Sequence record: DRR378314_790 | DNA: 64,000 nucleotides | Strand: one strand, 5' to 3' | Part shown: in pieces, positions 22,507 to 44,919 of the stretch | Numbering within the stretch: the stretch's first letter is position 1 | Layout: every line of letters starts with the position of its first letter | Made by a program: the position numbers and the translations under genes | Notes under the pieces: generated by a model | What the model was told of the DNA's origin: nothing | What the model saw: only the letters and a program-made list of their open reading frames with translations | The model's database searches: none

Positions 22507-22679
22507 ACCTAAATCAGTTTTTTATTACTTTTGTTGTTGCGTTAATCTTTGGGGTCGTTTTGAGCAATATCGCAAAAACACTTTTTGTTCATTTTATGAG
22601 GTTTTATCGAAAGCTGACATTCAGGCATGTATTACTTAAGCCGTATGAGCCGAGTATTAAAAAGAAGGATAAAATGTGA
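22503..22679 (+). CDS. bcsF: Small single-TM cellulose biosynthesis protein (ATG 22503 overlaps the bcsE stop)
   Basis: Short protein with N-terminal TM and basic tail ending …LKP…, located between bcsE and bcsG. Confidence 0.75.
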   Translation: MNLNQFFITFVVALIFGVVLSNIAKTLFVHFMRFYRKLTFRHVLLKPYEPSIKKKDKM

Positions 22680-25909: not shown

Positions 25910-28900
25910 TCATTTATTTTTTTCGTTTGAAAAAGAAAGCCAACCAGGTTTCTGGTTTCGGTTTAGCTTAGCGAGGATTTCAATCGCTTTTTCCAAGGTT
26001 ATGCGATTGTTTGCAATATCTTTATAAACACGGATAGCGATTTTTTTACGTTTTACCGCAGCGCCGGCTTCTAAGAAAGACTCTACGACTTGAGTAGCGA
26101 AACGCTTAATTGTACTTTTTTGCTTTTTAACTGATTGGCCGTTCTTTATTTTTGCGCGTTTACTTAGGCGCTCAGTGATATGTTGAAGTTCAGCTTGGCT
26201 ATATTCATTTTGTGCGTGATGGGCTTTTCTGATTTGAATAATCGCATTCGTTAAATAGGTGGCCTCAAGTTCTGAAAATTGATTAATGAGTGATAGACGT
26301 GCTAACGCTTGCCTAAAGTGATCGGCAGAGCAACTTTCATCAAGTAATGTTTTAATATTATCGTAAATACGTTGCCACTGCTGCCAGCTGTAAACGTAAC
26401 CAAGGCCTGTCCCTTTGATGTTCTGCATTCCTACAATAACTTGATGGCAGTTAGGCCTAGCATAAGTCGATAATTCGATAGTCAATTCGTTGGCAGAAAT
26501 TTGAGAGTCATCTATGAGCACACACTTACTGTGTGCAAGGCTAAGTAAAGTTTGTTTTAATTGTTGTTGGTTTTTTTCAATGTTATCAAATAAAGGCTGA
26601 ATTTTTTTATAACTTATATAATGCTCAAATACATCTTTTAAACTTGTTTTGCGTTGTTCAGGTAAGTCAAAATCTTGATTTTTAAACCAAGAATCTAAGC
26701 GTGCTTGGTTGGTTATTCCCTCAAGCTCATGCGCTGGCAAAGTAGACTCTAGCGCACTATTAAATAGCGTAATAAGTGAGTCAAAATCCTTAATACAATG
26801 TAATTGCGAGCATAATAATTCTAACTCTTGGCGATCATTGTTCTTGATTATTCGCTCTAAACGAGCTGTAAATGCTTGAATATAGTAACTATAAAACCCA
26901 TCTACATTTGTTCCTATCACGACCATTTTATCGAATGGTAAATCGTTAGCGAGAATTTCAGCAAACACCTTAGAACGGGCAACGCGGTCATTACGATTAT
27001 TTATAAGTGCTATGGTCTGTTTTGTTGGATCGTTTGATAATTCAAATAGGTTTAAACGCTTCCAATTTTCAAGAGTTGCTAAACGTTCGTTGGCAGACAT
27101 GCTATTAACAAATGACATGTTAAAGCCATTAAATGGTGCTGCTGTGAAGTGTTGTAAAACACCAATATCTGGAACGATACGTTGTGATGTTTCTTTAAAT
27201 ACAAAGTCTTTATCTAGGCCAATATGCGCCGCCATCTTGCACACTAAAGCGATATTGTCTGGGTGCTCCTGGTAAGGGTAAAGTGCTCTTATATCAGGGG
27301 GGATTTGATAACCATCCCCCCAATGAACTTGCACAAGGGTGCTTTTCTTTAGCGTGGCATCCTTTTCTAGAATGGGCATCATCGTTTGTTCGCTGGTAAA
27401 TACTAAGTTATTTGGTGCGATAAAATTAGCCATTTCTTTAGCAACATCAATACCTGTAGGCCCTAAAATGTCTTCATGATCAGGGTATGCATTGGTAATA
27501 GTAGAAAAGTTATCTTGCATCCATTGGCGTAAAATCCTCACGTATCGAGGTGTTAGCCCCATGCACTCCCATAAAAAAACATCGGCTTTTACATTTTTTG
27601 CAAAATGTAAAATATCACTTTGTTCCCAAATACTCGCTTTATCAAAAGGGCGAAATATAGGTACTTCAAATTGATCACCGTTTGAACGTGCAAATATCAT
27701 CGTGGCTTCACAGCCAGTTGTTTTGGTTATAACTTTAAGTGCTAGGCCACTAAAAAGAGCTGCTTTGAGCCTTTCTGTGCCTGACTTACCTCGTGTTCCC
27801 CAGCCTCCAATACTAACGGGAATTGCTTTTCTATCTCTTTTTATACGTTGACTGACATGGACATGGCGGCCCCAAAAATACAGCATAAAACCCAGTACAA
27901 AAAATATTAGCTGGCCAATACTGTTTTGATAAATAGAATATAAATATTCTTTAAAGCTAAGCCACACATTCACAAAGAGCGGAGAAACACTTAATTTTTT
28001 ATAAAGGTTACTAATTCCTTCTTCAACCTCAAAGTGACAACCAAGTTGTTCACCATAAGCCTTAAACTCAAGTTTAAAGCCGTTTTTTTCGAGTTTTGAT
28101 AAATAGTTTTTTTGTTCAATATCGTTACCTTTTCGCAAGTTATCTAGTTGCTCAAGGTTAAGTGACAACCAAATGTATGTCTTTACGCGTTGAAAAAGTG
28201 TTGCAGGTGGAGTGACACATAAAATACCGTCAGGTGTGTATGTTTTTGCTGCTTGCTTTAAATCGTCTTGACTTAACACTGATAATAAAAAATCAGGTAA
28301 GGGAAGGTGAGGGCGTGTTGAATGCTCTTTATCATCAAACAGAGGCTCTCCTGGAACGCTTGTTGTACTTATCTCAGCAACCGTGCAGCTAGGAACATGC
28401 ATAAATGCAGAAGGCTTTCTCGCTACGCTGTGGTTAAAGCTTTGACGTTTATCAGTACTTGGATTTCGCCATTCATGAATAAAGCGCCAAATGCGAAACG
28501 CGCTGTGATAACCATTACGAATGTGCCAATGATGTTTTTTATTGGTTACATTGTAGCCTTCATTTTGCTGTGCTTTACGGCTAAGTAAGCGCCCTAATAG
28601 CTCTTCATCTAATGACTTTTGGTCTATCAGAGTTTTATCAGATTGTGGGAGTGAATGCTCCAAAGATGCCACTTTAGTTTGGTGTGCAAATGAAACCAGT
28701 TGTTCGCGCGTTCTTGTGATGTATCGACGAACGGCGCGGTTAGGTTCTTGATTAAGTTGGTCATTTAAACACGCTATAAACTGCTTGAAGATTGCGTCTG
28801 GATCATCTGTTTCAAGTTGTAAGTTGAGCATTATTCTAGCGCTGAGCTCTAAGGTTAAACGTTTAATTTGTATACTGTGTTTGGACTTTAATAGCTCCTT

Positions 28901-30022
28901 CCATAAGCTAAAGGCTATCCCGTCTGTGCTCATGCGTGCATTGCTTAATTGTTTTACTAATGTAAAACGTACTGAATCTTCTGTTTCGTGCTTGAGGCGC
29001 TCGGTGATCAGCCTTTGTAAAAAAGGCAGATCAAAATACAACGACTGCTCAACAACACTTTGCCTTACTCTTGGGTAAGTGTGGCAAGCAAGGCGTTGCA
29101 GTAAATCTTCGCAATGCTTGGTTAAATGCAATTGACTGACTAAAATTTTTGGTAAAGCGGCTAATAGAAATAAACGCTGATCATCTTTGAGTTGAAATTG
29201 ATCTTGATTTTTGATGATTTGTGCCATAAATGCACGAATGTATGTAGGGCGTTGATGAATCAAGATTTCTAAAATATCTAATCGGGCTAAATGTGGTGTA
29301 TGAGGCTGCTCTAATGCTAACACTAATGTTTCCACTAAATTTGCGCTGAGCTCATGTTCATCCACTGTGTTATGTATAAGTTGTACTTGATTGGCTAACG
29401 CGCGATATAGCGCATTTTTTACATGTTCGCTTTTTGTTTGCGACAAGACATTTAGGAAAAAGCTTTCTAAATCGAGAGATTGCCATGCACTAGAAATATT
29501 TTTGGCATAATTTAGTAGATAGCGGTTACTCAAATCGCCTAGTTTACCAATTAAAAATTTTAATGTTTGTTCAATATCGGCAATGCTGTCTTGGTAGCGG
29601 TTAATGACAGCGCCTTCATCAAACCAACGAGAAAATGCTTGTTTGTCTTGTTTTAATTGTTCATCAGTTGCACCGAGCTGTTTTGCATAATCAAGAATAT
29701 GAAACTCTCTCTCAGCACTTATTTCAGCATGACTGATACGTTCAATAAATAACAGGTAGCCGGCATCTAGCTGCTGTAGATTCTGTTGCTTTTGCTCTAC
29801 TTGATGACGCAAAAATCCAATAGACTGGCGCAGTAGCCAATCGTTCTCGTCTTCTTGTTCTGGGATCGTTTGTAACAGCTCCCATTTTGCTAAATCATCA
29901 ACGAGCTGGCGATATTTTTGACGGTACAAGTCGAGCCAAAAATTGGCAATGTCAGCAAAAAGCACATGCTCTAAACGTTGCTTTAATTCTTGCTGTGTCA
30001 TTTGTTTATTTGCAGATGCCAT
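25910..30022 (-). CDS. capB: Giant CapB/PgsB-like poly-gamma-glutamate synthase (Mur/FolC-type ligase) with ~700-aa helical (HEAT-like) N-terminal extension
   Basis: P-loop GWGTRGKS, TKTTG, WECMGLTP, ITNAYPDHEDILGPT, FVNSMSAN, INNRNDRVARS, GMQNIKG all parallel PgsB motifs; TM just before the ligase domain. Confidence 0.85.
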   Translation of the reverse strand: MASANKQMTQQELKQRLEHVLFADIANFWLDLYRQKYRQLVDDLAKWELLQTIPEQEDENDWLLRQSIGFLRHQVEQKQQNLQQLDAGYLLFIERISHAEISAEREFHILDYAKQLGATDEQLKQDKQAFSRWFDEGAVINRYQDSIADIEQTLKFLIGKLGDLSNRYLLNYAKNISSAWQSLDLESFFLNVLSQTKSEHVKNALYRALANQVQLIHNTVDEHELSANLVETLVLALEQPHTPHLARLDILEILIHQRPTYIRAFMAQIIKNQDQFQLKDDQRLFLLAALPKILVSQLHLTKHCEDLLQRLACHTYPRVRQSVVEQSLYFDLPFLQRLITERLKHETEDSVRFTLVKQLSNARMSTDGIAFSLWKELLKSKHSIQIKRLTLELSARIMLNLQLETDDPDAIFKQFIACLNDQLNQEPNRAVRRYITRTREQLVSFAHQTKVASLEHSLPQSDKTLIDQKSLDEELLGRLLSRKAQQNEGYNVTNKKHHWHIRNGYHSAFRIWRFIHEWRNPSTDKRQSFNHSVARKPSAFMHVPSCTVAEISTTSVPGEPLFDDKEHSTRPHLPLPDFLLSVLSQDDLKQAAKTYTPDGILCVTPPATLFQRVKTYIWLSLNLEQLDNLRKGNDIEQKNYLSKLEKNGFKLEFKAYGEQLGCHFEVEEGISNLYKKLSVSPLFVNVWLSFKEYLYSIYQNSIGQLIFFVLGFMLYFWGRHVHVSQRIKRDRKAIPVSIGGWGTRGKSGTERLKAALFSGLALKVITKTTGCEATMIFARSNGDQFEVPIFRPFDKASIWEQSDILHFAKNVKADVFLWECMGLTPRYVRILRQWMQDNFSTITNAYPDHEDILGPTGIDVAKEMANFIAPNNLVFTSEQTMMPILEKDATLKKSTLVQVHWGDGYQIPPDIRALYPYQEHPDNIALVCKMAAHIGLDKDFVFKETSQRIVPDIGVLQHFTAAPFNGFNMSFVNSMSANERLATLENWKRLNLFELSNDPTKQTIALINNRNDRVARSKVFAEILANDLPFDKMVVIGTNVDGFYSYYIQAFTARLERIIKNNDRQELELLCSQLHCIKDFDSLITLFNSALESTLPAHELEGITNQARLDSWFKNQDFDLPEQRKTSLKDVFEHYISYKKIQPLFDNIEKNQQQLKQTLLSLAHSKCVLIDDSQISANELTIELSTYARPNCHQVIVGMQNIKGTGLGYVYSWQQWQRIYDNIKTLLDESCSADHFRQALARLSLINQFSELEATYLTNAIIQIRKAHHAQNEYSQAELQHITERLSKRAKIKNGQSVKKQKSTIKRFATQVVESFLEAGAAVKRKKIAIRVYKDIANNRITLEKAIEILAKLNRNQKPGWLSFSNEKNK

Positions 30023-30023
30023 A

Positions 30024-33000
30024 CTAATCTTGCTCTAAAAAGTGATTGAGTTGCAGTGATTCAAAGATGATTTCATCATGGGAGAAAACACTTAAACCAG
30101 TGTCTGATATATTGCCAGTAGAGAACTCTAAGCTCACATTGTGATCATTTCGAAACCAATCCTGATCCCAACGTAATTTTATCCAGCCTTGAGAAAAGTT
30201 ACCTAAATGCACTTGTTTGCGCCAACCTAGGCTGGTGATATATTGCCACGTGCTATTCGGCCTATCATCATCGGCAAATTTATAATAACTGGTTAAGCCT
30301 GCCTGAAAGATGTGGCCTCGGTAAAATTGATTCCATGAGCTTCCAAAGCGTAATAAATCTAAGCTCGTCCAATCAGCGTTACTGGTGCTGCCCGCCATAA
30401 AGTTAACATAACCATCAACCCAAGGTTGATAGCGATATTGGTATTCTCCTCGCCATCCATAAGGGTGATCCTCACGGTAAAAATTATAGATGTCGGAGTT
30501 TAAATTCGAATCAAATAAAAAGTCATCAAGGGAGGCACTGCTATAACTATAAAAAGGGCTCACTTGCCATTGGTGCCGGTGGCTTTGGTCTATTCGCCAA
30601 ATTTGACCAATTTGAATATAGGCATTTATACCGTATTGACTTGAAAGTTTACCTTTACTAGGTTGCCAAGAGGTTTGTAATGCACTGTCTATATACCACG
30701 GGCTATCATGGTCTTGCCAAGCGTGGTAGCCGTCGATAGAAAGTATGTCAGCGTCTTGCTCGCTGAATGAATATGTTAAGTCTAAACGATACCAGTTTTC
30801 ATCGTCGGCTAGGCGAAGTCGCGCTCCGAGATCTAAACTATGGCGAGTTGGAATGTCTTCACTGGTTTCAAATATACCACGGCGGTTATACTTAACAAAC
30901 GCTTGCCAGTTTATTTCTTCAGGCTTAAAGGTGGCGATTTCGCTGTGCAAAGTGTGTGTTTGCTCAGGTAATATATAGGTCAATATGTCACCTTCAAGCT
31001 GGGGTTGGGGTTGATAACTTGAAATTTTATGGTGTGAGTCTCTCAATTGCCATGTGTAGAGTCTGACGTATTTTAATTTATCTGTAGTGACTTCGACTTT
31101 TCCAGCTGGATGAAAAAAAGTTCGCTCAATACGTTGCTTATACCCATTACCCTCATTGCCCTTAAGCATTTGCTCAAGCTTTACCAATCTATCCGCAGGT
31201 AGTTTTGCAATTAACGGTTGGTTTGGTAGTACCGTGTAAAAGAGTAGCTTTTTTGGTAGAGGAAGATCATACCAATGCCCATGACGATACTCCTGTGCAT
31301 TCAAGGTTATAATCTGCGATAAGTAAGGATTGAGCCAATGCAATGAAATGACATTGTTTACAAGTTCCGATTTATTGAACCCAAATGCAGTCACCTTGTC
31401 TGGCTCAACAGACCATGTTTTTGTAGTATCACCTAGATTGATTGCAATATTAGCTATATTTCCTTGTGATAGCTCTGCATTAGAAAAGTGAAAATTCAAA
31501 CGTATTTGATCTGAACGGGTTTGCGATAAGTCTAAATGTAGGCTGTGTAATGGGCGCAGCAATAACCCGCTCTTAAAGTCATGCTTACTACTGCTGCGTG
31601 ATAACTGATCGCTAAAACTTGCTTCACTGAGCGAATCAACCGTAAGCAACTGGGTGCCAGCAAAGTCCGCGTATTCCTCAAGGGGTGTCCATTGACCATA
31701 ACTTTGCACCCGAGATAGTAGTGGTTCAAGGCTTTCAGGCAAAGTGACAGTTCTTAATTTGGCGAGCGCTTGTGTATACTCATTTATACCAAGAGTATTA
31801 CCAGATAGTTTGAATAAGGTGCTGTTTAGTAATGCTTTTTCATTTTTAGAGGGATCGTAAACCAAATCAAGAAATGGCTGTTGCCAATAATGAGCCGTAG
31901 CCATGTCTTGAAAAACAAAATCTGCTAATAAAGGCGCCGGTAAAACCTTTAAACTTATATATGCAGGGTTATCACTGTGTAGTCGAACAGACTCGCCTGG
32001 CTGTAAAGTAACTAAGCTTTCACTGGCAATAGATAGCAATTGCCCAGTATCTTCTCGTGCTGTCGTTGAGCTTATATCTGAATAAATGGGCAATATGCTT
32101 TGTTGTTGACCTTTGGTGGCGAACATCCAGCTCATTTTATATTGACCATTTTGGACGCTCTGACTGCGGGCTCTTATGGCGAATGTCACCGGTTTATCTG
32201 ATGCACTTACAGTAACTCCTTGTTGGTTGTTTAAAACATAAGTCTGAAATAAACCATTTGGGCTAATTAAGGTGTTGCTGCCTATATGTGCTAAAGAATA
32301 AGCTGTTTGATTACTATCTGCTTTAGCGTACTTACGCCAATTCAAACGCGCGTAACTATTTTTTAATTTTGGATCAGTTATTAGATTGTGGCTAAGCCAC
32401 AGTGCTAGCAGGTGGCGCTGCTGTTTAATGGCAAGCTTTACCATAGTATGTTGACACGTATTTATTGTATTGGCTGCATCAGCACACAAGCCTAGCAGTT
32501 TATAGTCTTGCTTTAGGTTGGTGTATTTTTCTAGTAGCGCTTGTGCGGCATATTTTTTAAGTGTTGGCGTTGCGGTGCTTTTATATAATCCCTCAAGATA
32601 GCTTTTAGCCAGTACACCTCTGCCTTGTTGTGATAATAATGCAATGCGCAGTTGCCATGCTTTTATTGCAATGGTTGGGTTTGTTGCATTTACTAATGAT
32701 TTTAGTAATTGTAGTGATTTTAACGGGTCACTTTTACTTAAGTCATGTGCTTTTGCAAGCTGGTTATGCCAATGCACTTGTTGCTGTTGCGTTTCTTTTA
32801 CACTTACAATTTGCGGGTTGTAGGGGACTAAAGTGTTAATGTATTCGTCGCCCATTAAAGCCAGCTTATCTTTAAGGAGTTGGCTGATAATAGGGCTTTT
32901 TTCTATTAACTTACCAGGTTGCAAATAAAGTAGCTCATTGTTTGGTAAGTCTAACAATTGTGAACTTTGCATTACATATTCTATGGGCTTACGTTGTGGT

Positions 33001-34325
33001 TGCAGGTTTTGGATTTTTATTGAGCTGGTGGTTAAGGGGATAGCTAATTCAAATGTTGCAAACTTGTCGCTTTTTAATAGGTTTAAATGCCATTGTTGAT
33101 TACCACTGCTAACTAAAATATGGGTGTCAATGTGACTGCGGGCATGCAATGTGATTGTAGGCTTGACGCGTTGTTTTGTTTTAAGATCAAAATGATGAGG
33201 TTGTGCTTTTAGAGAATGTACTTGAGCATACTCTTTTGTTAGTACAGGGTAGCCAGTATCATCAACAATACGCATGCCACTTAAGCTATCAAAGTGTTCG
33301 AATCGGCTATTAAAAATAATGTTATTATGGGCGTTGGGCATTAAGTAATGACTGGTTGAAATTGTTTTTAAAAGGTCTAGATAACGACGCTGGGCAAGCG
33401 CGTTATTTTTTTGATAAACACTCGAATTAACAGCCGATAAATCGTGATTTACATATATTTTTTTCAGTGTTTTATCTAAATTATTGATCCAAAAGGGTTG
33501 GAAGTACTTTTCCTCTAATTTATCCAATGCTTGATCGTCATATAGAGCGTGATGACTTTGTTCGACCTTTATGTAAGCAGCCGTTTCGCTTCGAAGTGTT
33601 AAATATTCACCTTTTTCAATGGCGATATAATCAGCATTGGCTAATCCAATGTGCTGTGACGGGTATTCATTCGCTTTACTGGCTAATACACTAATAATTG
33701 CAGCGGGCCTCTCATTAATAGAAGCATATACTTTGCCGTTAGTATCATGACTGAGTAAATCTTTACGCACTGATATTTTTAGTTTTTTAGCATGTTGAAA
33801 GTATAACTTAACCTGTTCACCAGCTTTAAAGTGATAATAATACTCAATATTTTGACCATAAGTAAGACGTGTTATATGCCTAGGGAGTTTTATTGCGTGG
33901 AGAAAGCTATCGCTGTGCCGCAAATTTTTACCCACCATGACATTAAACGTTTTACCAACATCTAAATGATTCGTTATTTTAATAATTCGGTTGTATGGTT
34001 GGCTAGGCAGCTGGCAGCGTGATTTTTTACAGGTAAAATCACGCTGTTGGTTCAACCTTTGTTGCGCAAGGTGACTGGTACCGGCGCTAAGAATAAATAT
34101 ATTAAAGTGACTACTTTCAAGTTCAAGCCATTGTCCTTTAGGTAACCACAAATGCTGGCTCTGCTTCGCTTCAAAAAAGTTTGAATGTTGTTTTTCTTTT
34201 AGTGTGAGTTCTGAACCAACATTTACCCAAGTCGGAGAGTTTAAGATGTTGTCGTTACTAGCAAATGCATACGTGCTCACTAAAGAGAAAAAGCTAAAAA
34301 TACAGACAATCACAGTGAAATACAT
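30024..34325 (-). CDS. Large exported protein (1433 aa): beta-rich periplasmic domains, TPR-like helical segment and probable C-terminal outer-membrane beta-barrel
   Basis: Signal peptide (…TYAFA-S); helical segment QLAKAHDLSKSDPLKSLQLLKSL…; last ~290 aa are alternating aromatic-rich strands (WYRLDLTYSFS, WRGEYQYRYQPW, GWIKLRWDQ). Confidence 0.7.
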   Translation of the reverse strand: MYFTVIVCIFSFFSLVSTYAFASNDNILNSPTWVNVGSELTLKEKQHSNFFEAKQSQHLWLPKGQWLELESSHFNIFILSAGTSHLAQQRLNQQRDFTCKKSRCQLPSQPYNRIIKITNHLDVGKTFNVMVGKNLRHSDSFLHAIKLPRHITRLTYGQNIEYYYHFKAGEQVKLYFQHAKKLKISVRKDLLSHDTNGKVYASINERPAAIISVLASKANEYPSQHIGLANADYIAIEKGEYLTLRSETAAYIKVEQSHHALYDDQALDKLEEKYFQPFWINNLDKTLKKIYVNHDLSAVNSSVYQKNNALAQRRYLDLLKTISTSHYLMPNAHNNIIFNSRFEHFDSLSGMRIVDDTGYPVLTKEYAQVHSLKAQPHHFDLKTKQRVKPTITLHARSHIDTHILVSSGNQQWHLNLLKSDKFATFELAIPLTTSSIKIQNLQPQRKPIEYVMQSSQLLDLPNNELLYLQPGKLIEKSPIISQLLKDKLALMGDEYINTLVPYNPQIVSVKETQQQQVHWHNQLAKAHDLSKSDPLKSLQLLKSLVNATNPTIAIKAWQLRIALLSQQGRGVLAKSYLEGLYKSTATPTLKKYAAQALLEKYTNLKQDYKLLGLCADAANTINTCQHTMVKLAIKQQRHLLALWLSHNLITDPKLKNSYARLNWRKYAKADSNQTAYSLAHIGSNTLISPNGLFQTYVLNNQQGVTVSASDKPVTFAIRARSQSVQNGQYKMSWMFATKGQQQSILPIYSDISSTTAREDTGQLLSIASESLVTLQPGESVRLHSDNPAYISLKVLPAPLLADFVFQDMATAHYWQQPFLDLVYDPSKNEKALLNSTLFKLSGNTLGINEYTQALAKLRTVTLPESLEPLLSRVQSYGQWTPLEEYADFAGTQLLTVDSLSEASFSDQLSRSSSKHDFKSGLLLRPLHSLHLDLSQTRSDQIRLNFHFSNAELSQGNIANIAINLGDTTKTWSVEPDKVTAFGFNKSELVNNVISLHWLNPYLSQIITLNAQEYRHGHWYDLPLPKKLLFYTVLPNQPLIAKLPADRLVKLEQMLKGNEGNGYKQRIERTFFHPAGKVEVTTDKLKYVRLYTWQLRDSHHKISSYQPQPQLEGDILTYILPEQTHTLHSEIATFKPEEINWQAFVKYNRRGIFETSEDIPTRHSLDLGARLRLADDENWYRLDLTYSFSEQDADILSIDGYHAWQDHDSPWYIDSALQTSWQPSKGKLSSQYGINAYIQIGQIWRIDQSHRHQWQVSPFYSYSSASLDDFLFDSNLNSDIYNFYREDHPYGWRGEYQYRYQPWVDGYVNFMAGSTSNADWTSLDLLRFGSSWNQFYRGHIFQAGLTSYYKFADDDRPNSTWQYITSLGWRKQVHLGNFSQGWIKLRWDQDWFRNDHNVSLEFSTGNISDTGLSVFSHDEIIFESLQLNHFLEQD

Positions 34326-35074
34326 TTTTTTAGTCCACTCATTAATTTAGGCTGTTGAATAAGTTTTTTACGTAATGAATAACTAAGTTCAATATGGAAA
34401 AATTCATTTTTTGGCAATGTAATACTATTTAAAATATTTTTAGTGCCACCTAGCTCGGCTACTTCTAATGGGTAGACGGCGCTTTTGAGTTTTAAGCGGT
34501 CATTGAAGCAACGGCTTATTTTTTTCACTTTTGCCGAAGGCGGCCGTGCCCCCTGACTGATAATGATATCAAGAGCTTGAGCTTGCTCTGTGCGACGTTT
34601 CTTTTCATCAAAACCATGAATTTGATAAATACGGGTCGCTGGCACAGTACTGGCGTACGATTCGATGAATGCATTTGCAACACTGTAACGGGACTTACCT
34701 AAATCGGCTTTAACTCCCAGCTTGTTTAGGGTATTTCGGTGTTTTGTATTGGCTATGAGTACTTGGCACTGTGCGGATAATGCCTCTGCAATGTCAAAAG
34801 TGTATTTGTCAAAATAACGGTGTGGTGCATAGATAATACAGGGTTCTTCGTGCATGCTATAGCGTATGAGAGCGCCGGAAATTAATTCATGTTTATCATC
34901 CAAGATTATTTCTGCATTTAGATGATAATTTAACTGCATCACTCTTTGATTTGTCAGCCACTGACTAAGCTGTTGTTTTAAAGTGGCATACTTATCGGCA
35001 ACACTAGGTCCTGTTGCGCTTAATGCAAAGCTCAAAAATAAGCTTAAAAGTAGGGTTGGTTTAAAGAGTTTCAT
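34310..35074 (-). CDS. Exported Zn-carboxypeptidase-fold protein, putative poly-gamma-glutamate hydrolase-like enzyme
   Basis: Signal peptide; IYAPHRYFD, QIHGF, LGGTKNILN and FFHIELSYSLR resemble the APH…E, LHG and QLELS…LR motifs of phage-type gamma-PGA hydrolases. Confidence 0.55.
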   Translation of the reverse strand: MKLFKPTLLLSLFLSFALSATGPSVADKYATLKQQLSQWLTNQRVMQLNYHLNAEIILDDKHELISGALIRYSMHEEPCIIYAPHRYFDKYTFDIAEALSAQCQVLIANTKHRNTLNKLGVKADLGKSRYSVANAFIESYASTVPATRIYQIHGFDEKKRRTEQAQALDIIISQGARPPSAKVKKISRCFNDRLKLKSAVYPLEVAELGGTKNILNSITLPKNEFFHIELSYSLRKKLIQQPKLMSGLKKCISL

Positions 35075-37331: not shown

Positions 37332-40300
37332 AAGTGCCTTCCATCATCATGGTGTTAAAACGTGATTGATCGGTTAATCGGTTTGTCACTGGATTAAAAA
37401 TAGCGAGCAACTTTGAATTTAAGAGTATAGCGAGGGCATATTCTTGTTGGCCTTCAAACTCTATAGTTTGTAAGGTGCAGTTATTAATGGGCTTACATAG
37501 TTGTGCCAGTACTGTTAAGCGTTGTGAACTACCATACTGTTGCAGTACGTCATTAAAATGCTGTTCTTGATTAAAGCTTAAATCGGCCCAGTCATTTGGT
37601 GACAGTGTGCTGATATTTATTGTTTTTACATAGGGTTGAGCAGATATTGCCAGCAAGCGTTGTAATAAACTTTGCTGATTAACTGAAAATTGTTTTTTAA
37701 AGTCAGATGCTAGCCACAATGTTGCAAGTTCACTTTGTGACGTAAATACTTGATAGCCAGATTGTGGTGAAGTGCCTAATTCAAGCCCTCTTGTTGCAGT
37801 TTGACCTAATACTGTTTGATAGTTTACCGACAAAGTGTTTAGGCCACTATCAAGTGCATCAATAAGTGGCTTATAGCTACTGCCTGCTTGAGTATACTGA
37901 AATGCCAGTGCTGTGGGTCTAATCCACGATGGAGCACTATGACTACGAATTTGTAAACTAAGTACATGCTGGTTTTGTGCATACCTAAGGTAGCTTTGAT
38001 GAACAACATTAAAAAGTGCGTCAATATTGTTTGGCGCTAATACATTTGCTTGCGGATGCGCATATGGATGAGCGCCCGCAATCATAAGCTGTTCAGCTTT
38101 ACTGGCAATAAATAACTCAGTCGCAAACTTAAGTGTATTACTTTCAAATAATGGCCGAGGGACTTGGATATTTAATCGCTCACTATTGTTGAGATTTAAA
38201 AAATATACTCCTTGACCATACCCAAGTGCAGGGCCTTCTAAACTAGGCGCAATTAGGAGGAAGCGGCCTTGGCCATTACGAACCAAACTTAACTGGTAGC
38301 CCATTAACCTAACCGTCGAATTAACCTGCTTGAGTAGATTTACTACATCACCATCGACCATTTTTTCTCTTAGGCTGGCTTTTAAATTGTACAGCGGGCG
38401 TAAAATTTCAAACTCCCATAAAGCCGCTTGATTAGGTGATAATGGTTTATACTGGCCACTTCCTTTTGCGGTAATATAGTCTGAATAAAAATCCACCAAT
38501 TCGTTTAGCGATTTATTGACGTAGGCGATTTCATTTTTTGCTTCTCCTTGATTATCGCGAGCAATATTAGCTAATAACGTAGTGTAGTTTTCACGACTTA
38601 AGAAAGCTTCAAATAATTGACCTTTAAAATTTTGATCGGGCAAGGAGCTTGTTGTTGCTAGACCGAAGAATGTCCCTTGGTAACCAAGCAGCTGCTGAAC
38701 TAATCGTTGGCTCAATTCGCTGGGGATCTGGTTATATATCCAATATTGGCTCGACGCACCTAACGTGGTTTTTGCTAGTAAGCGGCTGCTGCGGTTATTT
38801 ACCTCGCGCACTTGAAATATTTGCTCAAGATCCATCGCCTCAATGAATGCATAATAATAATCACTCTGCTGATTATTTTGAGAGAGTTTTGCACTGGGTG
38901 TTAAGCTTGTACCAAATACCATAGCTTGAGCTGAAAAATGCTCAAAAATATGACCTGCGGAATCACTTGCAAGGCTTTCCGACGTTGGATAAGGCACTGT
39001 GACTATAAAGTTTGCTGAAGGGTTGCGCGCAATAACAAAAAATCCTCGTTGAGAGGTTTTTCTCGTATCACGGATATAAATAAACCGTTCATCAAATTGA
39101 AGTTGAAAACCGAGTTTAGCGAAACGTAGTAGGTTATTTTGTATGTTCTGTAAATTATCGGGGGCTTTGTTTATTTCATTAATTGCGTACTTAAAATTGT
39201 TTTTGTCTTGGTTTACTTGGTAAAGGCTCAATTCTACACTGTCTTTGCTATCGGTGTACAAATAGCTTTTATACTCACTAATTTGTTGGCTCAAGGTACT
39301 CGTTTGTTGGGTTGGGCTAAAGCTATTAACGCCCGTATCTATAAATAAAGAAGGGATAAACATAATAAGAAAACCAATGGCAATTGCTAACGAACCACCA
39401 ACAATTGACGTTTGAAACGTCGCTCTTATGACGAGACCTAACGCACTTTTTTGGTATATTTTTAAAGCTAATAAAGTAGATAACATATAACCAAAGGCAA
39501 AGGTGTCAGTTACTTTTATCTCAGGGTAATAATGGACAACAAAATAGTTTAAAAAGAGCTTATAAATAAAACCAATGTTAAAGAAAAACAATAAAAGTCG
39601 AGCGCCTTCAATATTGGCATTCCTTAATCTTGTATAGTTAAGCAATGATGCGCCAATAATTAATATAATGGCCGTTTCGGCAAAAGAGGTGAGTAACTTG
39701 GTTGGTTGCATCAATTGTAAAGCAAGTAAAGCAGGCAACATGATGCCATTAAACTCCCAGCCATATTTTATATTCGCTCTGGATGCAAAAAAGGCCGTTA
39801 TTACTAGAATGATGTACGCTTTAGGGGCAGCGATAATTGAAGCCGCAACCGCTTCATACATTATAGCAAGGTTAGCAATGCTAAAATTGGTCATTGGCAT
39901 GAGTGCATAGCGTACTAGTAAATAGGTAATAACAAGCTGAATAATGGTCACTTTCATGCCGTATTTAAAACCGCCGTTCCACATTACGTTTGCGGTTAAC
40001 GCGATAATAACTAAGCCAAGTGAATAAAGCTGTGAAGAGTAGTCAAAAGTAATATCCCAACCGCTTAGGATATTGGCAATTAATGGCCAAAAAAGGGTGT
40101 CCATAACTACACGGACTAAAATACTAATTAAGATAATAGCGAAAAACCGATCTCGGCCAAACATTTCCCCGTAGCCAAATTTTTCCATAATGTATTTAGC
40201 GCTAAAGCGCATCAAGCCATACACCACGACAGATTCAATAATAATAACGCCAGCAGAGGTAGGGCTTACAATAAGAAGTGGTACAAGGTAACCCGGAACA

Positions 40301-40434
40301 ACTAACCCAGTTAAAGGGAAGCCAAAGCGTAAGTTGAGTAAACATACAACGGTGATACCAATCCATACAGTGGTAATCACCGACTGACCAAGTCCACCTC
40401 CAGATGGAAACAAGTGTAAAATTAAATCACCCAC
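37318..40434 (-). CDS. capC: CapC/PgsC-family membrane protein with two tandem CapC units and a large soluble C-terminal region containing an internal repeat (1038 aa)
   Basis: Unit 1 RFGFPLTGLVVPGYL…MFGRDRF…SLGLVIIALTAN; unit 2 KYGWEFNGIMLPALLAL…IEGARLL…AFGYMLSTLLAL; both match PgsC GLVVPGYL/LYGRRKF. Confidence 0.82.
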   Translation of the reverse strand: MGDLILHLFPSGGGLGQSVITTVWIGITVVCLLNLRFGFPLTGLVVPGYLVPLLIVSPTSAGVIIIESVVVYGLMRFSAKYIMEKFGYGEMFGRDRFFAIILISILVRVVMDTLFWPLIANILSGWDITFDYSSQLYSLGLVIIALTANVMWNGGFKYGMKVTIIQLVITYLLVRYALMPMTNFSIANLAIMYEAVAASIIAAPKAYIILVITAFFASRANIKYGWEFNGIMLPALLALQLMQPTKLLTSFAETAIILIIGASLLNYTRLRNANIEGARLLLFFFNIGFIYKLFLNYFVVHYYPEIKVTDTFAFGYMLSTLLALKIYQKSALGLVIRATFQTSIVGGSLAIAIGFLIMFIPSLFIDTGVNSFSPTQQTSTLSQQISEYKSYLYTDSKDSVELSLYQVNQDKNNFKYAINEINKAPDNLQNIQNNLLRFAKLGFQLQFDERFIYIRDTRKTSQRGFFVIARNPSANFIVTVPYPTSESLASDSAGHIFEHFSAQAMVFGTSLTPSAKLSQNNQQSDYYYAFIEAMDLEQIFQVREVNNRSSRLLAKTTLGASSQYWIYNQIPSELSQRLVQQLLGYQGTFFGLATTSSLPDQNFKGQLFEAFLSRENYTTLLANIARDNQGEAKNEIAYVNKSLNELVDFYSDYITAKGSGQYKPLSPNQAALWEFEILRPLYNLKASLREKMVDGDVVNLLKQVNSTVRLMGYQLSLVRNGQGRFLLIAPSLEGPALGYGQGVYFLNLNNSERLNIQVPRPLFESNTLKFATELFIASKAEQLMIAGAHPYAHPQANVLAPNNIDALFNVVHQSYLRYAQNQHVLSLQIRSHSAPSWIRPTALAFQYTQAGSSYKPLIDALDSGLNTLSVNYQTVLGQTATRGLELGTSPQSGYQVFTSQSELATLWLASDFKKQFSVNQQSLLQRLLAISAQPYVKTINISTLSPNDWADLSFNQEQHFNDVLQQYGSSQRLTVLAQLCKPINNCTLQTIEFEGQQEYALAILLNSKLLAIFNPVTNRLTDQSRFNTMMMEGTYAIY

Positions 40435-40442
40435 AGGTTAAA

Positions 40443-42410
40443 TTACTCCATTAAACTTGTTGTTAATGGTTGCTGCCTATTTAGGGCATCAATTAACTGT
40501 TTGCTGTTAGGCATTTGAGATATTAAAGAGGCAATGTCGACAAATTCAAACAATATCCCTGAGACTTGAAATGGCTCCCCTGATGCGCTCTGCACGCTGG
40601 CAGAGTCCACAGCTCTAACATTAAGGATGTAAACTTGATTATCGAGTTGAGCTTCTAGGTAAATTTCGCCCTTTTGAAGTGTGATGTAACGTAACTTTCC
40701 TTTTGCAGTTTCAATATCTAAATTAGTTACTTGGCAAAGTAAATCTAATGCTGTCATTTCAAATATTGAAAATTGATGACGTGAAGCTAGCTCCTCTAAT
40801 GCTTTATTTATTTGTACGACTTGGCCAAATAAATTAAAGAGTATAGTGGCAGATCGAATATGATTAAAAACATGCTCTAGGGTTGTTAACTTTTGCTCCA
40901 TTTCAGTAATCGACGTTTTTACTTTTTGGCTTAAAGGCTCTTGAAGAGTTAGAGTAAGTAATCGCGATAGGGTACTATTATTGATACTCGTTTGTGATTC
41001 ATATATCCGATAATGGAACAGTAATTCACCTACTTGACCTGCAAATGCATTAACATTTTTTTCAAAGGCTTGTTGATTAAAATCCTCATTAGGGGTTACG
41101 GTCATTGCCCAAAAACCGCGAACGTCGCCTGCATAAGTTAATGGCACTATGTATTGAACTTCACCCTCACCTAATTCTTCAAAGAATGGTCTTTCTATGG
41201 CGATGACGGTCAATGCTTTTAAAGCGTCAGAGTATGGAGGGCGTTTGTAGTCACGTCGCATCTCTTGTATATCAGTAAGGTGGCAGTTGACAGCTCTGAT
41301 CTCTGACAGGCGATGTTCACCCTCTTTACGGGCTAAAAAAATTGATTTGTTTAATGCTAATTGTTGACTAATTAAGCGCGTGATTGAGTCCCACGGTGAA
41401 CTTTGCGAGATAAACGATTGAGGTAAATATCGGCCAATCATTTTTTGCTGTATGTTTCCAATTAAATTAACAAGCTCATATTCTTCATTTAGTTTTCTTA
41501 TAACGACAACCCAAAGCAAGGTATAAAATGTCAAAACAATCATTTGACCTACAGGCAGAAAAACGTACTGAAAAAATAAAACAAAATAACTAAGTCCAAA
41601 CCACGCAACACTCAATACAGAGGCTAAAACTAGGCTGTAAACAATTGATAGCTTTTGAAAAGCAAATAACAGCGTGATAGAAAGGCATAAAAATAACAAT
41701 GTACTTTGCCACGGTTGAACAATTAGCACTGCGTTTTCTTTTTGCAGTGTGTCTGCAATATAGGCCACAAGTAAAAGGTAATTTGTGCTCTGCGAAAGCT
41801 TAGGTGCATTAAGTGAAACCCCTAACCCTGCATTTTTTTGCCCTAAAATTATGAACTTATTTTGTAATTGACTGGCCATAATGTCCATTGCCATAAGGCG
41901 TTCAGCTGAAAACTTAGGTAATGCAGCCGGGGCTAGTTCAAAATTGACTAATGCAGTCGTATTTTGGGTTTTAAATAGAAGGGGCCAAATAGAATGACAG
42001 CGAGTCTTATCCGATGATGTAATTTCAATGTTATACCCAGCCCAATCATTTAAAGTGGGCAGGCAGTAGTCATTATATGGGTGCGGATAATAAACAGTCT
42101 TTTGATCAGATTTGCTCACATCGTTATTTAATTGTAGCTGCTCATTTGACACAACAATGATATGGCTTGGTTCATAGGTTTGTAATTGTTTAACTATTTC
42201 AGTGTGTTCACGGCTCAAGTGCTCGCTTTCAATAAGCACGACTTCACTTTGCTGACTCTGTGTTAAATGTGCAAGTTGGCTATATAACAACGCATTCACA
42301 GAATGAAAAAGTGAGAGTGAATTGGCAACTATAATGGTGCTAAATAACATCATTATTAGCCAGAAATTTTTCTGGCGTTGCAATAGTGATAGTTGGTGCT
42401 TTAAAGCCAC
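40443..42410 (-). CDS. Inner-membrane CHASE2-like sensor protein with 3 following TMs and cytoplasmic GAF/PAS-like domains, no output domain
   Basis: N-terminal TM; EVVLIE…, LVNF…PKFSAERLM…LQNKFIILG CHASE2-like pattern; IVPLTYAGDVRGFWAM GAF-like; ATILFNLFGQVVQINKA PAS-like. Confidence 0.65.
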   Translation of the reverse strand: MALKHQLSLLQRQKNFWLIMMLFSTIIVANSLSLFHSVNALLYSQLAHLTQSQQSEVVLIESEHLSREHTEIVKQLQTYEPSHIIVVSNEQLQLNNDVSKSDQKTVYYPHPYNDYCLPTLNDWAGYNIEITSSDKTRCHSIWPLLFKTQNTTALVNFELAPAALPKFSAERLMAMDIMASQLQNKFIILGQKNAGLGVSLNAPKLSQSTNYLLLVAYIADTLQKENAVLIVQPWQSTLLFLCLSITLLFAFQKLSIVYSLVLASVLSVAWFGLSYFVLFFQYVFLPVGQMIVLTFYTLLWVVVIRKLNEEYELVNLIGNIQQKMIGRYLPQSFISQSSPWDSITRLISQQLALNKSIFLARKEGEHRLSEIRAVNCHLTDIQEMRRDYKRPPYSDALKALTVIAIERPFFEELGEGEVQYIVPLTYAGDVRGFWAMTVTPNEDFNQQAFEKNVNAFAGQVGELLFHYRIYESQTSINNSTLSRLLTLTLQEPLSQKVKTSITEMEQKLTTLEHVFNHIRSATILFNLFGQVVQINKALEELASRHQFSIFEMTALDLLCQVTNLDIETAKGKLRYITLQKGEIYLEAQLDNQVYILNVRAVDSASVQSASGEPFQVSGILFEFVDIASLISQMPNSKQLIDALNRQQPLTTSLME

Positions 42411-42431
42411 AGAAGATCCAATGAAAGTACG

Positions 42432-44657
42432 TTAGTTAAAAGTGCTAAATGTAAGCTTGTATGTGACAGGTGTGCTGGAATCGGCGTATAAAAAATCAAA
42501 CCCATGCATTTTTTTTGTTTGCCAAACGCCTTCATCAATTACGAGCTTATCTTGCCACGACACCATCGCAATATCGTCTAATGCTAAGCTGGCTTCATCG
42601 TTGCTGGGAGGAAAATGTCTAAAGGTTACTTTCACCCCACGTGCTGGCAGATTTTCTGGACCCAATGTAGTTGTGTCTGCTGGTAACGTAAAATTGTAAT
42701 TAAATGCTTGCCATGAGTATGTTCCTGCTTGTGCGATATCGCTATACTCTGTAGAGAACTCTAGCGCATCTTCTGCAGTAGTCGTGACTAACTTTAGCTC
42801 TAATCTACCTGCGTTTTCGCCTTTCATATAGCCAATTAAGCTGAAGTCTTTAAATGCTTGTGTTTGACCATTGTTATCATAAAATTCCATTGTACGTATT
42901 GTTTGTCTGAACGGAATTATTGAAGGCGTATTATCAAACTGTGTTCGTGATGAACACAAGGCTTGAAGACCACTTCGAACATTACTTATACAGGGCGTGA
43001 CGCTATCGCCACTGTGATCCCATCTTGCAACCTCAAGTTGTTCATCATCATTATCCCAATCTTCAAAGTCGCCAAATATCATCATGTCACGGCCGAACTT
43101 AAGGGATGTGGGGGCATCGCCTTCGATTATTTCTATTTTAGATAAAAAAGCGGCTGTTGAGGGGGCATAATCGCGTAAATCAATCATACTCTGCTCTGCG
43201 CTTAGTGAAACTGTTTCAGTGTGTTGAGTTACTTGCATTTGGTTTTTACTAAAGTATAAATCAGCATAACCATCTCTAGGGATTAAAGTGATGTTATCGT
43301 CCGAAAGGCTTGCGAGCCGGCGGATTAAATAGTTACTTAAAAACCCATGTGTGAATTTAGGTTGATACCCTTCTACATAAACAGGATAAACTACCCCACG
43401 TTTTGTCGGGGTACTACTGTCTGTGTCAACCTTAACCATCACGGCAACACCCAATAAGGTTTCCAATCGGTCTTGATCAAACATAAAGTTACCAAGGCCT
43501 AAAATAGCAGGTACACCATCATACATTGCAAAGCCTTGAGCAACGTGCGGGTGGTGTGCGATCAAAAGATTAACGCCGTATTTAGCTATCGTTTCAAATC
43601 GACTTTCAATATAAGGGGTAGGAGAGTAAGAATACTCATCGCCGCCATGCATTTGTATAATTGAGTAATCGCTGTTGGTTATCGTATCTTCAACCGCATT
43701 AATCACTAATGGTGTATTGGTTAAATCAGCAGCCCCTCCTTTCGTTTCGCTGGAAACATAGTTTATTTCGTGTTCGTTCCCAGGAATTGATGTAGCTGAA
43801 AATAAACCTAATTTAATCGTGCCAACATCCAGTAACTTTGGCGCATAAGACTCCTGATTATTCTTACCAGCACCACTGTGAGCAACCCCAGCGTTATTGA
43901 CTTCAATAATTGTGTCATCAAGTCCGTCTTCTAAAAAGTCGTAAACGTGATTATTACCAAGAGCTACGTAGTCGATCCCTATGTCTGTTAATCCTTGCAA
44001 TGTTTCAGGTAACGAGAAAAAAGCAAACTCTTTAGTTGGATGTACTGTTTGTGGAGTCCCAGTAACAGGACTTTCTAAATTAACAGAGGCAAAGTCAGCA
44101 GCTAAAAATAAAGGGGCTACGTATTGTGATAGCTTTTTAGCATCTTCACTTGCACTAGAAGGTCTAATTAACGCTTCATCTATATTTGGAATATCAGCTG
44201 ACATTGTTGAAAGTGAGGGGTCGAGGTAGCGACGACCAAACATTGTGTCGCCAGCAAAGAGTAGCTCTACTTCATTTGTTTTTTTGCTAAGGAGTGTGAT
44301 TGTTTTTGAATTGGAAGTGTTACTTATACTCAGTGTTTCAATATGGGGCAAATAATTAGATGCATTTATATCTAACCGGTAATTTCCATAAGGCATGTTT
44401 TTAAGCGATATTTTGCCTGCATTGTCACTTATATACACAACACCATTTAATTTTACGGAAACATTACTCGCAGCTTCATTATTTTCATTCAAAATAGTGA
44501 CGGTAACAGAGTCTGTATTTTGAAAGTATTGCTTGCGCAGTTGAATTTCAGTTTGTTGACTCTGAGTTTCCTCAGTCTCGTAAGGGTCTTCTACCTTACA
44601 TGCACTGATAAAAATAATAATAAGACAAGGCAGAGTTATAGTTCGTATATTGTGCAA
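42432..44657 (-). CDS. capA: CapA/PgsA-family (PGA_cap metallophosphatase) lipoprotein with N-terminal beta-sandwich and C-terminal CBM-like domain; likely TTG start at 44657 (ORF track starts at 44744)
   Basis: Lipobox IFISAC; FAGDTMFGR, VNLES, ALGNNHVYD, MHGGDEY, AHHPHVAQG, GLGNFMFDQ. Confidence 0.88.
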   Translation of the reverse strand: MHNIRTITLPCLIIIFISACKVEDPYETEETQSQQTEIQLRKQYFQNTDSVTVTILNENNEAASNVSVKLNGVVYISDNAGKISLKNMPYGNYRLDINASNYLPHIETLSISNTSNSKTITLLSKKTNEVELLFAGDTMFGRRYLDPSLSTMSADIPNIDEALIRPSSASEDAKKLSQYVAPLFLAADFASVNLESPVTGTPQTVHPTKEFAFFSLPETLQGLTDIGIDYVALGNNHVYDFLEDGLDDTIIEVNNAGVAHSGAGKNNQESYAPKLLDVGTIKLGLFSATSIPGNEHEINYVSSETKGGAADLTNTPLVINAVEDTITNSDYSIIQMHGGDEYSYSPTPYIESRFETIAKYGVNLLIAHHPHVAQGFAMYDGVPAILGLGNFMFDQDRLETLLGVAVMVKVDTDSSTPTKRGVVYPVYVEGYQPKFTHGFLSNYLIRRLASLSDDNITLIPRDGYADLYFSKNQMQVTQHTETVSLSAEQSMIDLRDYAPSTAAFLSKIEIIEGDAPTSLKFGRDMMIFGDFEDWDNDDEQLEVARWDHSGDSVTPCISNVRSGLQALCSSRTQFDNTPSIIPFRQTIRTMEFYDNNGQTQAFKDFSLIGYMKGENAGRLELKLVTTTAEDALEFSTEYSDIAQAGTYSWQAFNYNFTLPADTTTLGPENLPARGVKVTFRHFPPSNDEASLALDDIAMVSWQDKLVIDEGVWQTKKMHGFDFLYADSSTPVTYKLTFSTFN

Positions 44658-44830
44658 ATTAGTCTCGTTAACATTAATATATTGTTGTTGTATGTTTTTC
44701 AAGTGTAAATTATTTTGCTTATTCTTAAAATGGCAATAAATCACAAAGTGTGAAAATGTACCTTTAAGGTTAGTACTAAAACTACATGAAGCCTATAGGA
44801 AATGGCTTAATTTAAAATATAAAGTGTAAT

Positions 44831-44848: not shown

Positions 44849-44919
44849 ATATACTATCCTCATTCGCTTTGTTCGCGTATTATTCGCGGAATATTGGTTT
44901 TCTCTTTTTTGAGGGTGAA

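Follow-up and report, generated by a model that had tools for sequence, protein, structure and literature searches.

Seven co-oriented genes at positions 25910–44657 of a 64,000-nucleotide stretch of DNA from sequence record DRR378314_790 (the window, which is the extent of the DNA analysed here) form a real, conserved, and apparently undescribed system. The names of close relatives place the window in Pseudoalteromonas, the genus referred to throughout. The conserved unit within the cluster comprises six genes, encoding a sensor, a double CapC, a 756-residue protein, a hydrolase, a barrel protein, and a long CapB. This six-gene core is probably a dedicated machine that makes a γ-glutamyl polyamide and exports it across both membranes, in the manner of the Bcs, Pel, and Pga systems but with ligase chemistry. 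By analogy with the PgsB family, the product would be poly-γ-glutamate (PGA). From capA to capB, the genes are:

42432–44657, minus strand: CapA-family metallophosphoesterase lipoprotein, accessory; 741 residues from a TTG start, or 770 from a GTG at 44744 (PF09587, E 4e-50).
40443–42410, minus strand: CHASE2-type membrane sensor, 655 residues; CHASE2 detected in orthologues, adjoins capC in 65 of 68 loci.
37318–40434, minus strand: double CapC/PgsC with two inactive hydrolase copies and a tail, 1038 residues (PF14102; HHalign).
35061–37331, minus strand: 756-residue protein, candidate inner-membrane-anchored periplasmic scaffold; hydrophobic segment at 7–25, follows capC in 71 of 73 loci.
34310–35074, minus strand: predicted exported zinc amidohydrolase, 254 residues, with the PghP/N-formylglutamate-amidohydrolase fold (structural model, Foldseek, conserved site).
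30024–34325, minus strand: 1433-residue envelope protein with a C-terminal barrel, candidate export channel (model of residues 234–1433).
25910–30022, minus strand: long CapB/PgsB, 1370 residues (TIGR04012, 211 bits; motifs common to short PgsB).

The list of open reading frames agrees with a preliminary description, made from the sequence alone, in the number and lengths of the genes and in their gaps and overlaps, with spacings from capA towards capB of +21, +8, −14, −14, −16, and +1 bp. That description had also named homologues of CapA, CapB, and CapC, and the corresponding domains are all present: PGA_cap (PF09587, 171 bits), a TIGR04012-type PgsB domain (211 bits), and CapC (PF14102, 104 bits against a gathering cut-off of 27, in two stretches). 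The GC content of the cluster (37–41%) is the same as in the remainder of the window, and all seven proteins are matched at 98–99% in the nearest genome, G001. Pseudoalteromonas records carry automatic annotations for capB and capC, while the remaining four core genes are mostly labelled hypothetical. A promoter scan at the 3′ end of the operon gave chance-level hits only, no terminator-like site was found between capB and the next gene, and one metatranscriptome yielded six contigs of 153–414 bases, from which transcription of the operon cannot be judged.

The long CapB occurs in 18 of 37 genomes of the genus and in 1 of 24 other genomes of the order. Of the 18 capB-positive genus genomes, 17 share the complete seven-gene order, and the remaining one (L028) lacks capA, which was found nowhere in its genome. 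Within the genus, the hydrolase profile matches the genomes that have capB, the same 18 of 37, with no match in the other 19. Of 400 gammaproteobacterial genomes drawn evenly, 6 contained a short PgsB above the cut-off and 9 (including G001) the long type, below the cut-off; six of the eight genomes from outside the genus had long enough contigs, and all six carry the six-gene core. A GTDB scan with a CapC alignment confirmed 393 stretches, and the locus counts given here rest on the best 80 of the 393, which were chosen by likeness to one query and include some kin, so that the counts are descriptive and carry no test. Titles of the GTDB loci name Gamma-, Beta-, Zeta-, and Alphaproteobacteria, Magnetococcus, Desulfobacterota, Campylobacterota, Myxococcota, Acidobacteriota, and Spirochaetota. 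Gene order is kept from Pseudoalteromonas to Desulfobacterota, Myxococcota, and Spirochaetota, with each neighbour present in 95–97% of informative loci (where the flank suffices, sensor 65/68, 756-residue protein 71/73, hydrolase 52/55, barrel 52/54, capB 38/40), and all 30 operon genomes searched have one PgsB-like ligase. The hydrolase served as a second anchor in a phylum draw of 400 genomes, where five of eight new matches lay in the operon, one had the barrel gene only beside it, and two stood alone. The seven-gene order in 17 of 18 capB-positive genomes, together with the six-gene core across phyla, argues that the cluster is not a chance arrangement.

These distributions change the outline of the system as first proposed. 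The four extra genes do co-occur with capB and capC, as had been suggested, but outside the genus not with capA: CapA was found in none of the 80 non-genus loci, of which 42 had at least 6 kb upstream of capC, with the region downstream of capB covered in seven genomes only. A seven-gene core is therefore rejected, with CapA a genus-level addition to a core of six. The core is also not confined to marine gammaproteobacteria, given its presence in Desulfobacterota, Myxococcota, Spirochaetota, and other groups, and a fixed link to the neighbouring bcs genes is likewise rejected, as bcs follows in five of the eight genus genomes checked. Partial arrangements were seen as well, with the hydrolase and barrel genes together but apart from the rest of the operon at L204:6280–12410 and the double capC alone in L095 and L134. 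No long CapC was found in 72,556 plasmids.

The long CapB consists of a HEAT-repeat helper (residues ~1–680), an internal anchor (~703–718), an ATP-dependent amide ligase (~724–1061), and a 300-residue tail. Residues 724–1061 score 211 bits against TIGR04012 and 19 bits against FolC, and the GTRGKS P-loop and the motifs KTTG, ECM, PDH-D, F-N--AN, and N-R-DR--RS are common to 41 long and 6 short PgsB sequences. The ligase domain is 29.6% identical to Bacillus CapB over 83%, and a PDB profile search with it gave no match. HEAT_2 was detected in 14 of 18 helpers, the C-terminal part of which is also conserved. The hydrophobic anchor of short PgsB is kept inside the long CapB. In several genomes helper and ligase are separate genes, with the break immediately ahead of this anchor, which then stands at the start of the ligase gene. 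An amphipathic aromatic helix precedes the anchor in all forms. The fused helper lacks a signal peptide yet stands before the membrane anchor (residues ~690–718, window 27870–27960), so a cytoplasmic location for both helper and ligase requires that the anchor form a hairpin or lie along the membrane. A P. lipolytica CapB L166S change is listed without further study in a mutation table in the part of PMC10634453 available to us; residue 166 of the window protein is asparagine, and the entry could not be matched to the long CapB family.

CapC was proposed to form an inner-membrane synthase with CapB, and the domains for this are present, although the protein is more elaborate than supposed: two CapC copies (~20–345) are fused to two inactive hydrolase copies (~370–610 and ~640–900) and a 130-residue tail. 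At 1038 residues it scores 49.2 bits against TIGR04011, below the equivalog cut-off of 96.45 for a profile that describes a small single-domain protein. HHalign relates the two hydrolase copies to the 254-residue hydrolase family at 97.4% and 97.0%, and to each other at 99.4%. Across 97 sequences arginine replaces the second zinc histidine in 93 (copy 1) and in all 97 (copy 2), and in copy 2 it also replaces the first histidine in 94; the acidic zinc ligand is retained as glutamate. The fixed arginines in these dead domains fit a polyanion-binding site. A complex prediction with the periplasmic part of CapC and the N-terminal part of the 756-residue protein, run with alignments unused, scored 0.00 and speaks neither for nor against contact. 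In a myxobacterial locus (L098) and a spirochaete locus (L129), the 756-residue protein is reduced to its first 250–290 residues and CapC lacks its 130-residue tail; that these parts are missing together hints that the lost region and the CapC tail work together.

The 254-residue protein had been proposed as a periplasmic trimming hydrolase, and its predicted structure (pLDDT 85.9) has the fold of enzymes that cut glutamate amide bonds. The best Foldseek match is the phage PGA hydrolase 3a9l (E 3.8e-6), while the wide structure search VIA returned Atu2144 (2odf; Z 14.0, rmsd 2.8, 175 residues aligned), an N-formylglutamate amidohydrolase (2q7s; Z 12.4, rmsd 3.0, 177 aligned), PghP (3a9l; Z 11.6, rmsd 3.8, 165 aligned), and PghL (5onj; Z 11.2, rmsd 3.8, 168 aligned). 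PGA hydrolases and N-formylglutamate amidohydrolases both cut the amide bond at the glutamate amino group. An intact site, H85-D89-H153-E207, is conserved, with H85, D89, and H153 in 83 of 83 sequences and E207 in 80 of 83. Its order equals that of the zinc and catalytic residues His40, Glu45, His103, and Glu165 of PghP given in the accessible part of PMC6506827, a correspondence by motif order only and with Asp in place of Glu. Most hydrolase sequences (71/81) carry a net positive charge. A PDB profile search with the hydrolase found no match, no homologue was detected in 50,697 phage records or in PHROGs, and a search for longer fused hydrolases found none, although this search was weak and missed the known CapC fusions too. 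Seven of the 18 operon-bearing genus genomes encode a second, unlinked secreted paralogue (for example L156:5560–6624, L157:5481–6542, L158:6099–7151, and L159:5944–7077) in which the zinc ligands are kept and the position of the catalytic Glu is changed; the 19 genus genomes that lack the operon gave no such paralogue. PgsS had no match in the operon, and the presence there of a PghP-fold hydrolase unrelated to PgsS suggests that the polymer is trimmed or released and not anchored as a capsule.

The 1433-residue protein has a signal peptide, beta-rich periplasmic domains, a helical stretch (~464–660), a 14-strand barrel (~1138–1404), and a short helical C-terminal extension. The model of residues 234–1433, built with 61 sequences, has a pLDDT of 85.7 and a pTM of 0.67; its top Foldseek matches as a 1200-residue whole, to Cry proteins, were disregarded at a TM of 0.08. 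In VIA the barrel matches CymA (Z 18.9, rmsd 3.9, 256 residues), OmpG (Z 17.9, rmsd 3.5, 233 residues), PelB (Z 15.3), the polysaccharide secretin 4y25 (Z 14.7), and BcsC (Z 14.6). The idea of a BcsC-like exporter combining tetratricopeptide repeats (TPRs) with a barrel holds for the predicted outer-membrane barrel but apparently not for the remainder, which is modelled as mostly beta-rich with a short helical stretch and no copy of the long TPR region of BcsC: about 200 residues are helical in the model, no TPR profile matched the window protein or five orthologues, and leads for TPR in the Atlas reach only 0.80–0.81. The inferred pore-lining face carries 15 Lys/Arg and 9 Asp/Glu (family means 16.9 and 10.6), and in this model the net positive face is a weak hint of a polyanionic cargo. 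Seven loci have two genes in its place, of ~1100 and ~700 residues; the product of the latter carries a signal of its own and, in three cases, a lipobox-like cysteine. The 1433-residue protein is therefore a periplasmic and an outer-membrane protein fused into one. The 756-residue protein has a single hydrophobic segment, at residues 7–25, and no match in Pfam, in the PDB (profile search included), or among named Atlas entries. Its family extends to 1287 clusters at 50% identity, 752 of them at E ≤ 1e-30, and profile comparison relates it weakly (21% or less) to several of the beta-rich stretches in the barrel protein. Gene position and location make it a candidate periplasmic scaffold.

The sensor has four hydrophobic segments, at 16–34 and within 238–304, and a strongly conserved cytoplasmic block (~330–470) that may be GAF-like. 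CHASE2 was detected in two orthologues (E 1e-14) and a weak HATPase_c in three long ones. Most orthologues are ~840–970 residues long and end in a degenerate histidine-kinase tail that is lost in Pseudoalteromonas; among 60 long sensors, at most four have the H-box histidine at the expected column, and DxGxG has become NxGxG in 54. By sequence, the sensor is a pseudo-kinase remnant. The proposed sensory subunit thus belongs to the unit as a membrane sensor, but one devoid of kinase chemistry. Although the sensor has no phospho-accepting histidine, 29 of 68 informative loci (e.g. L076:2882–3253) carry a single receiver-domain gene between it and capC. As regards a c-di-GMP receptor, profile searches with the operon proteins and their orthologues gave no match to PilZ or GGDEF. 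The recurrence of sensor and receiver, and the presence of three or more pseudo-enzyme domains, could also be explained if the operon encoded a trans-envelope signalling or envelope-maintenance device, in which CapB and CapC make a small γ-glutamyl signal or modify the cell wall; PgsB is a member of the Mur ligase superfamily. This is the least probable explanation that we considered, as the sensor is unable to phosphorylate itself and, in the genus, no longer has its kinase tail, the operon is absent from half of the genus and so is not housekeeping, and a large channel with a polymer-type hydrolase exceeds the needs of a small signal.

A machine for making and exporting a γ-glutamyl polyamide is favoured by three independent glutamate-amide signals in one operon, namely the PgsB-type ligase, CapC, and the hydrolase. 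It is supported further by the conservation of order and content across phyla, by the occurrence of hydrolase and capB in the same genus genomes, and by the predicted outer-membrane barrel, with the histidine-to-arginine changes and basic surfaces fitting a polyanion. No glycosyltransferase was matched in the seven proteins by the profile searches that found the neighbouring BcsA, which argues for a polyamide. PGA release by a gammaproteobacterium has a reported precedent in Chromohalobacter canadensis, with no genes named in the accessible part of that study (PMC7401248).

Several observations weigh against this conclusion. The TIGR04012 cut-off of 222.7 is missed by the window CapB and by 30 of 30 orthologues (184–219 bits). 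In a quick, midpoint-rooted tree that has no Bacillus row and from which we claim no evolutionary direction, the long CapBs form a clade of their own on very long branches from short PgsB, with several motif residues changed. The substrate may differ from that of PgsB, given these scores and the separate clade with its altered motifs. The Z-scores of the hydrolase place it at least as near to N-formylglutamate-amidohydrolase-like proteins as to PghP, and the PF05908 profile is not reached, as only 1 of 17 members scores (E 0.013). The barrel gene is missing in one alphaproteobacterial locus (L142), the hydrolase is missing in L080 and L154, and homologues of the hydrolase also stand alone, as in two of the eight new matches above. 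The main caution comes from Francisella, for which the part of a review available to us sees no evidence of a polyglutamate capsule despite capBC (PMC3925715), so that possession of capBC does not by itself imply a PGA capsule.

Much of this evidence would fit the same export architecture with another product, either a short or mixed polyamide (e.g. with glutamine or another amino acid) or γ-glutamyl chains on a surface glycan, lipid, or protein. The scores below both the PgsB and PgsC equivalog cut-offs, the separate CapB clade, the Francisella precedent, and the Asp that stands where PghP has a Glu zinc ligand are all compatible with such a product, and the beta-rich domains of the 756- and 1433-residue proteins could bind glycan. 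This alternative is possible but doubtful: no acceptor, glycosyltransferase, or monomer-supply gene recurs beside the core, only the receiver domain, and ligase, CapC, and hydrolase all indicate glutamyl amides.

The barrel raises a further point against export, as its best matches, CymA and OmpG, are import channels. Outer parts working inward, with barrel and hydrolase taking up and cutting environmental PGA, the sensor detecting it, and the ligase making an internal or periplasmic nitrogen store, would also agree with the stand-alone hydrolase homologues and with a sensor in the core. We regard this as very unlikely, because the unit has no recurring inner-membrane importer, TonB receptor, or γ-glutamyl transpeptidase, because PelB, BcsC, and another polysaccharide secretin come close behind in a ranking of folds that gives no direction, and because the CapC family belongs to a synthase that secretes while polymerising, according to the part of PMC4497714 available to us.

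CapA, translated from the TTG at 44657, has a lipobox, a carboxypeptidase-regulatory-like domain, the PGA_cap domain, and a C-terminal extension; the lipobox cysteine and the motifs GD-M, NLE, GNNH-D, HGG, and HHPH are invariant in 18 of 18 genus sequences, so the metal motifs are intact. A weak match to MslH, a CapA-family peptide epimerase in the accessible part of PMC9266682, makes a tailoring role plausible by analogy. The PGA model of CapsuleFinder, as given in the portion of PMC5542703 seen, treats CapB and CapC as mandatory, CapA as accessory, and PgsS as forbidden, and the window agrees with its mandatory and accessory terms, with both mandatory domains in one operon. Outside the genus, PF09587 was detected in 13 of 36 operon genomes and not found in 23 of 36, several of which are incomplete metagenome-assembled genomes. 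Full-length CapA orthologues are unlinked in three non-genus operon genomes; two of these loci have no core gene nearby, and one lies on a short contig. Five genus genomes that lack the operon encode a different secreted CapA-domain protein of ~690 residues (e.g. L160:5455–7485 and L161:5974–8061), so that CapA alone is no marker for PGA genes.

Taken together with the families involved, these features suggest how PGA synthesis and export could proceed. The CapB ligase would add glutamate to the growing chain with ATP, a role suggested by its motifs and by the substrate of the PgsB family, and the fused HEAT helper may scaffold or control it. The doubled CapC would form the membrane passage, one gene giving what a PgsC dimer may give in Bacillus, and its two dead hydrolase domains, with arginine in place of zinc-binding histidine, would grip the polyanion as it enters the periplasm. 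The periplasm could be spanned by the 756-residue protein together with the beta-rich domains and helical stretch of the 1433-residue protein, and the predicted 14-stranded, net positive barrel would pass the chain through the outer membrane. The PghP-like hydrolase, from its fold and site, may play the part that BcsZ has for cellulose, trimming or releasing chains and removing stray polymer. Often accompanied by a lone receiver, the CHASE2 pseudo-kinase would switch the machine by contact and not by its own phosphorylation, as its degeneracy suggests. In Pseudoalteromonas the added CapA lipoprotein could perhaps epimerise, tailor, or release the polymer.

The preliminary description knew of no characterised system with this architecture, and likewise no description of the operon was found in the open full-text literature, a search that left subscription journals largely outside its coverage. 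Like Bacillus PgsBCA(E)/CapBCADE, the operon has a PgsB-type ligase with the main motifs and membrane anchor, CapC domains, and, in the genus only, a CapA-family protein. It differs in its 1370-residue ligase with HEAT helper and tail, in a CapC that is doubled and joined to two dead hydrolases, in the dispensability of CapA, in four extra conserved genes, in the reversed order with capB last, and in missing both equivalog cut-offs. The short Gram-negative clusters of capB, capC, and a third gene (the Francisella capBCA type) share with it a diderm host and PgsB and PgsC homologues. Two such clusters, L074 and L075, have a ~400-residue CapB above the cut-off in a separate clade, a small CapC, and a 380-residue third gene; the genes for sensor, scaffold, hydrolase, and barrel are all absent from both. 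PGA has also been reported in Fusobacterium nucleatum, as cited in the accessible part of PMC4497714.

The resemblance to synthase-dependent secretion by Bcs, Pel, Pga, and alginate systems lies in the set of parts: inner-membrane polymerase, scaffold, periplasmic hydrolase, barrel with a helical periplasmic portion, and regulatory subunit. In contrast to these systems, the operon has an ATP-dependent amide ligase in place of a glycosyltransferase, a barrel of 14 strands, a short helical stretch in which no TPR profile matches, and no PilZ or GGDEF match, and no sequence homology was found. The barrels of BcsC, PgaA, PelB, and AlgE have 16 or more strands. With PghP/PghL (PF05908) and the N-formylglutamate amidohydrolases, the 254-residue protein shares its fold (Z 11.2–14.0) and a His-acid-His plus catalytic Glu arrangement in the same order, but at 12–15% identity and with an Asp second ligand and a signal peptide. 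Unlike PghP and PghL, it is encoded inside a synthase operon, has two inactive copies fused to CapC, and has no phage homologue that we could find. The system therefore lies outside the PgsB and PgsC equivalogs by score and outside the polysaccharide secretion systems by enzyme, and most plausibly works like a hybrid of both. Its polymer chemistry would be familiar and its export apparatus novel, which brings it close to being a new class of secretion machine.

Three neighbouring features in the window deserve mention. A 404-residue secreted protein (24376–25590), co-oriented with the operon and 320 bases after capB, has a choice-of-anchor C/DUF642-like domain and a propeller-like part; homologues follow the operon in many genus genomes, several copies occur in L219, and the protein is possibly a matrix protein linked to the polymer. 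The bcsG gene (22676–24255) is in two frames (78 and 427 residues) and 5 bases longer overall than the single gene of 524–525 residues in three relatives; this is a frameshift or an assembly error, and would affect cellulose modification. A TyrR/PhhR-type regulator (44869–46476) is divergent from the operon and occupies the same position in 15 of 18 genus loci.

The literature searched offers no explanation of how PGA passes the Gram-negative outer membrane, and the operon offers a candidate for the whole route, whose parts can be tested, in a genus that has cultured, genetically tractable members. Known synthase-dependent export systems handle polysaccharides. Surveys by BLAST with the small PgsC missed the long systems: in the part of PMC4497714 available to us, Pseudoalteromonas PgsB entries, including accessions met in the genus annotation, stand in S2 Table under unpaired bacteria (within the first 30 of 45 places), where the long CapBs were filed in 2015. 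The system would define two large unnamed protein families, and would be a clear case of enzyme copies turned polymer guides. On the boldest interpretation, to which we give even chances, this is the first synthase-coupled polyamide secretion system, in which PGA is threaded through arginine-lined pseudo-hydrolases, a new scaffold family, and a 14-stranded channel of its own under pseudo-kinase control, in hundreds of Gram-negative species of at least six phyla. If so, PGA would be no Bacillus speciality but a matrix polymer that has been overlooked in marine, sediment, and symbiotic bacteria, and the matrix chemistry of sulfur-oxidising symbionts (such as those of the Thiodiazotropha loci) and of biofilms in the sea and in sediments would gain a nitrogen-rich polyanion.

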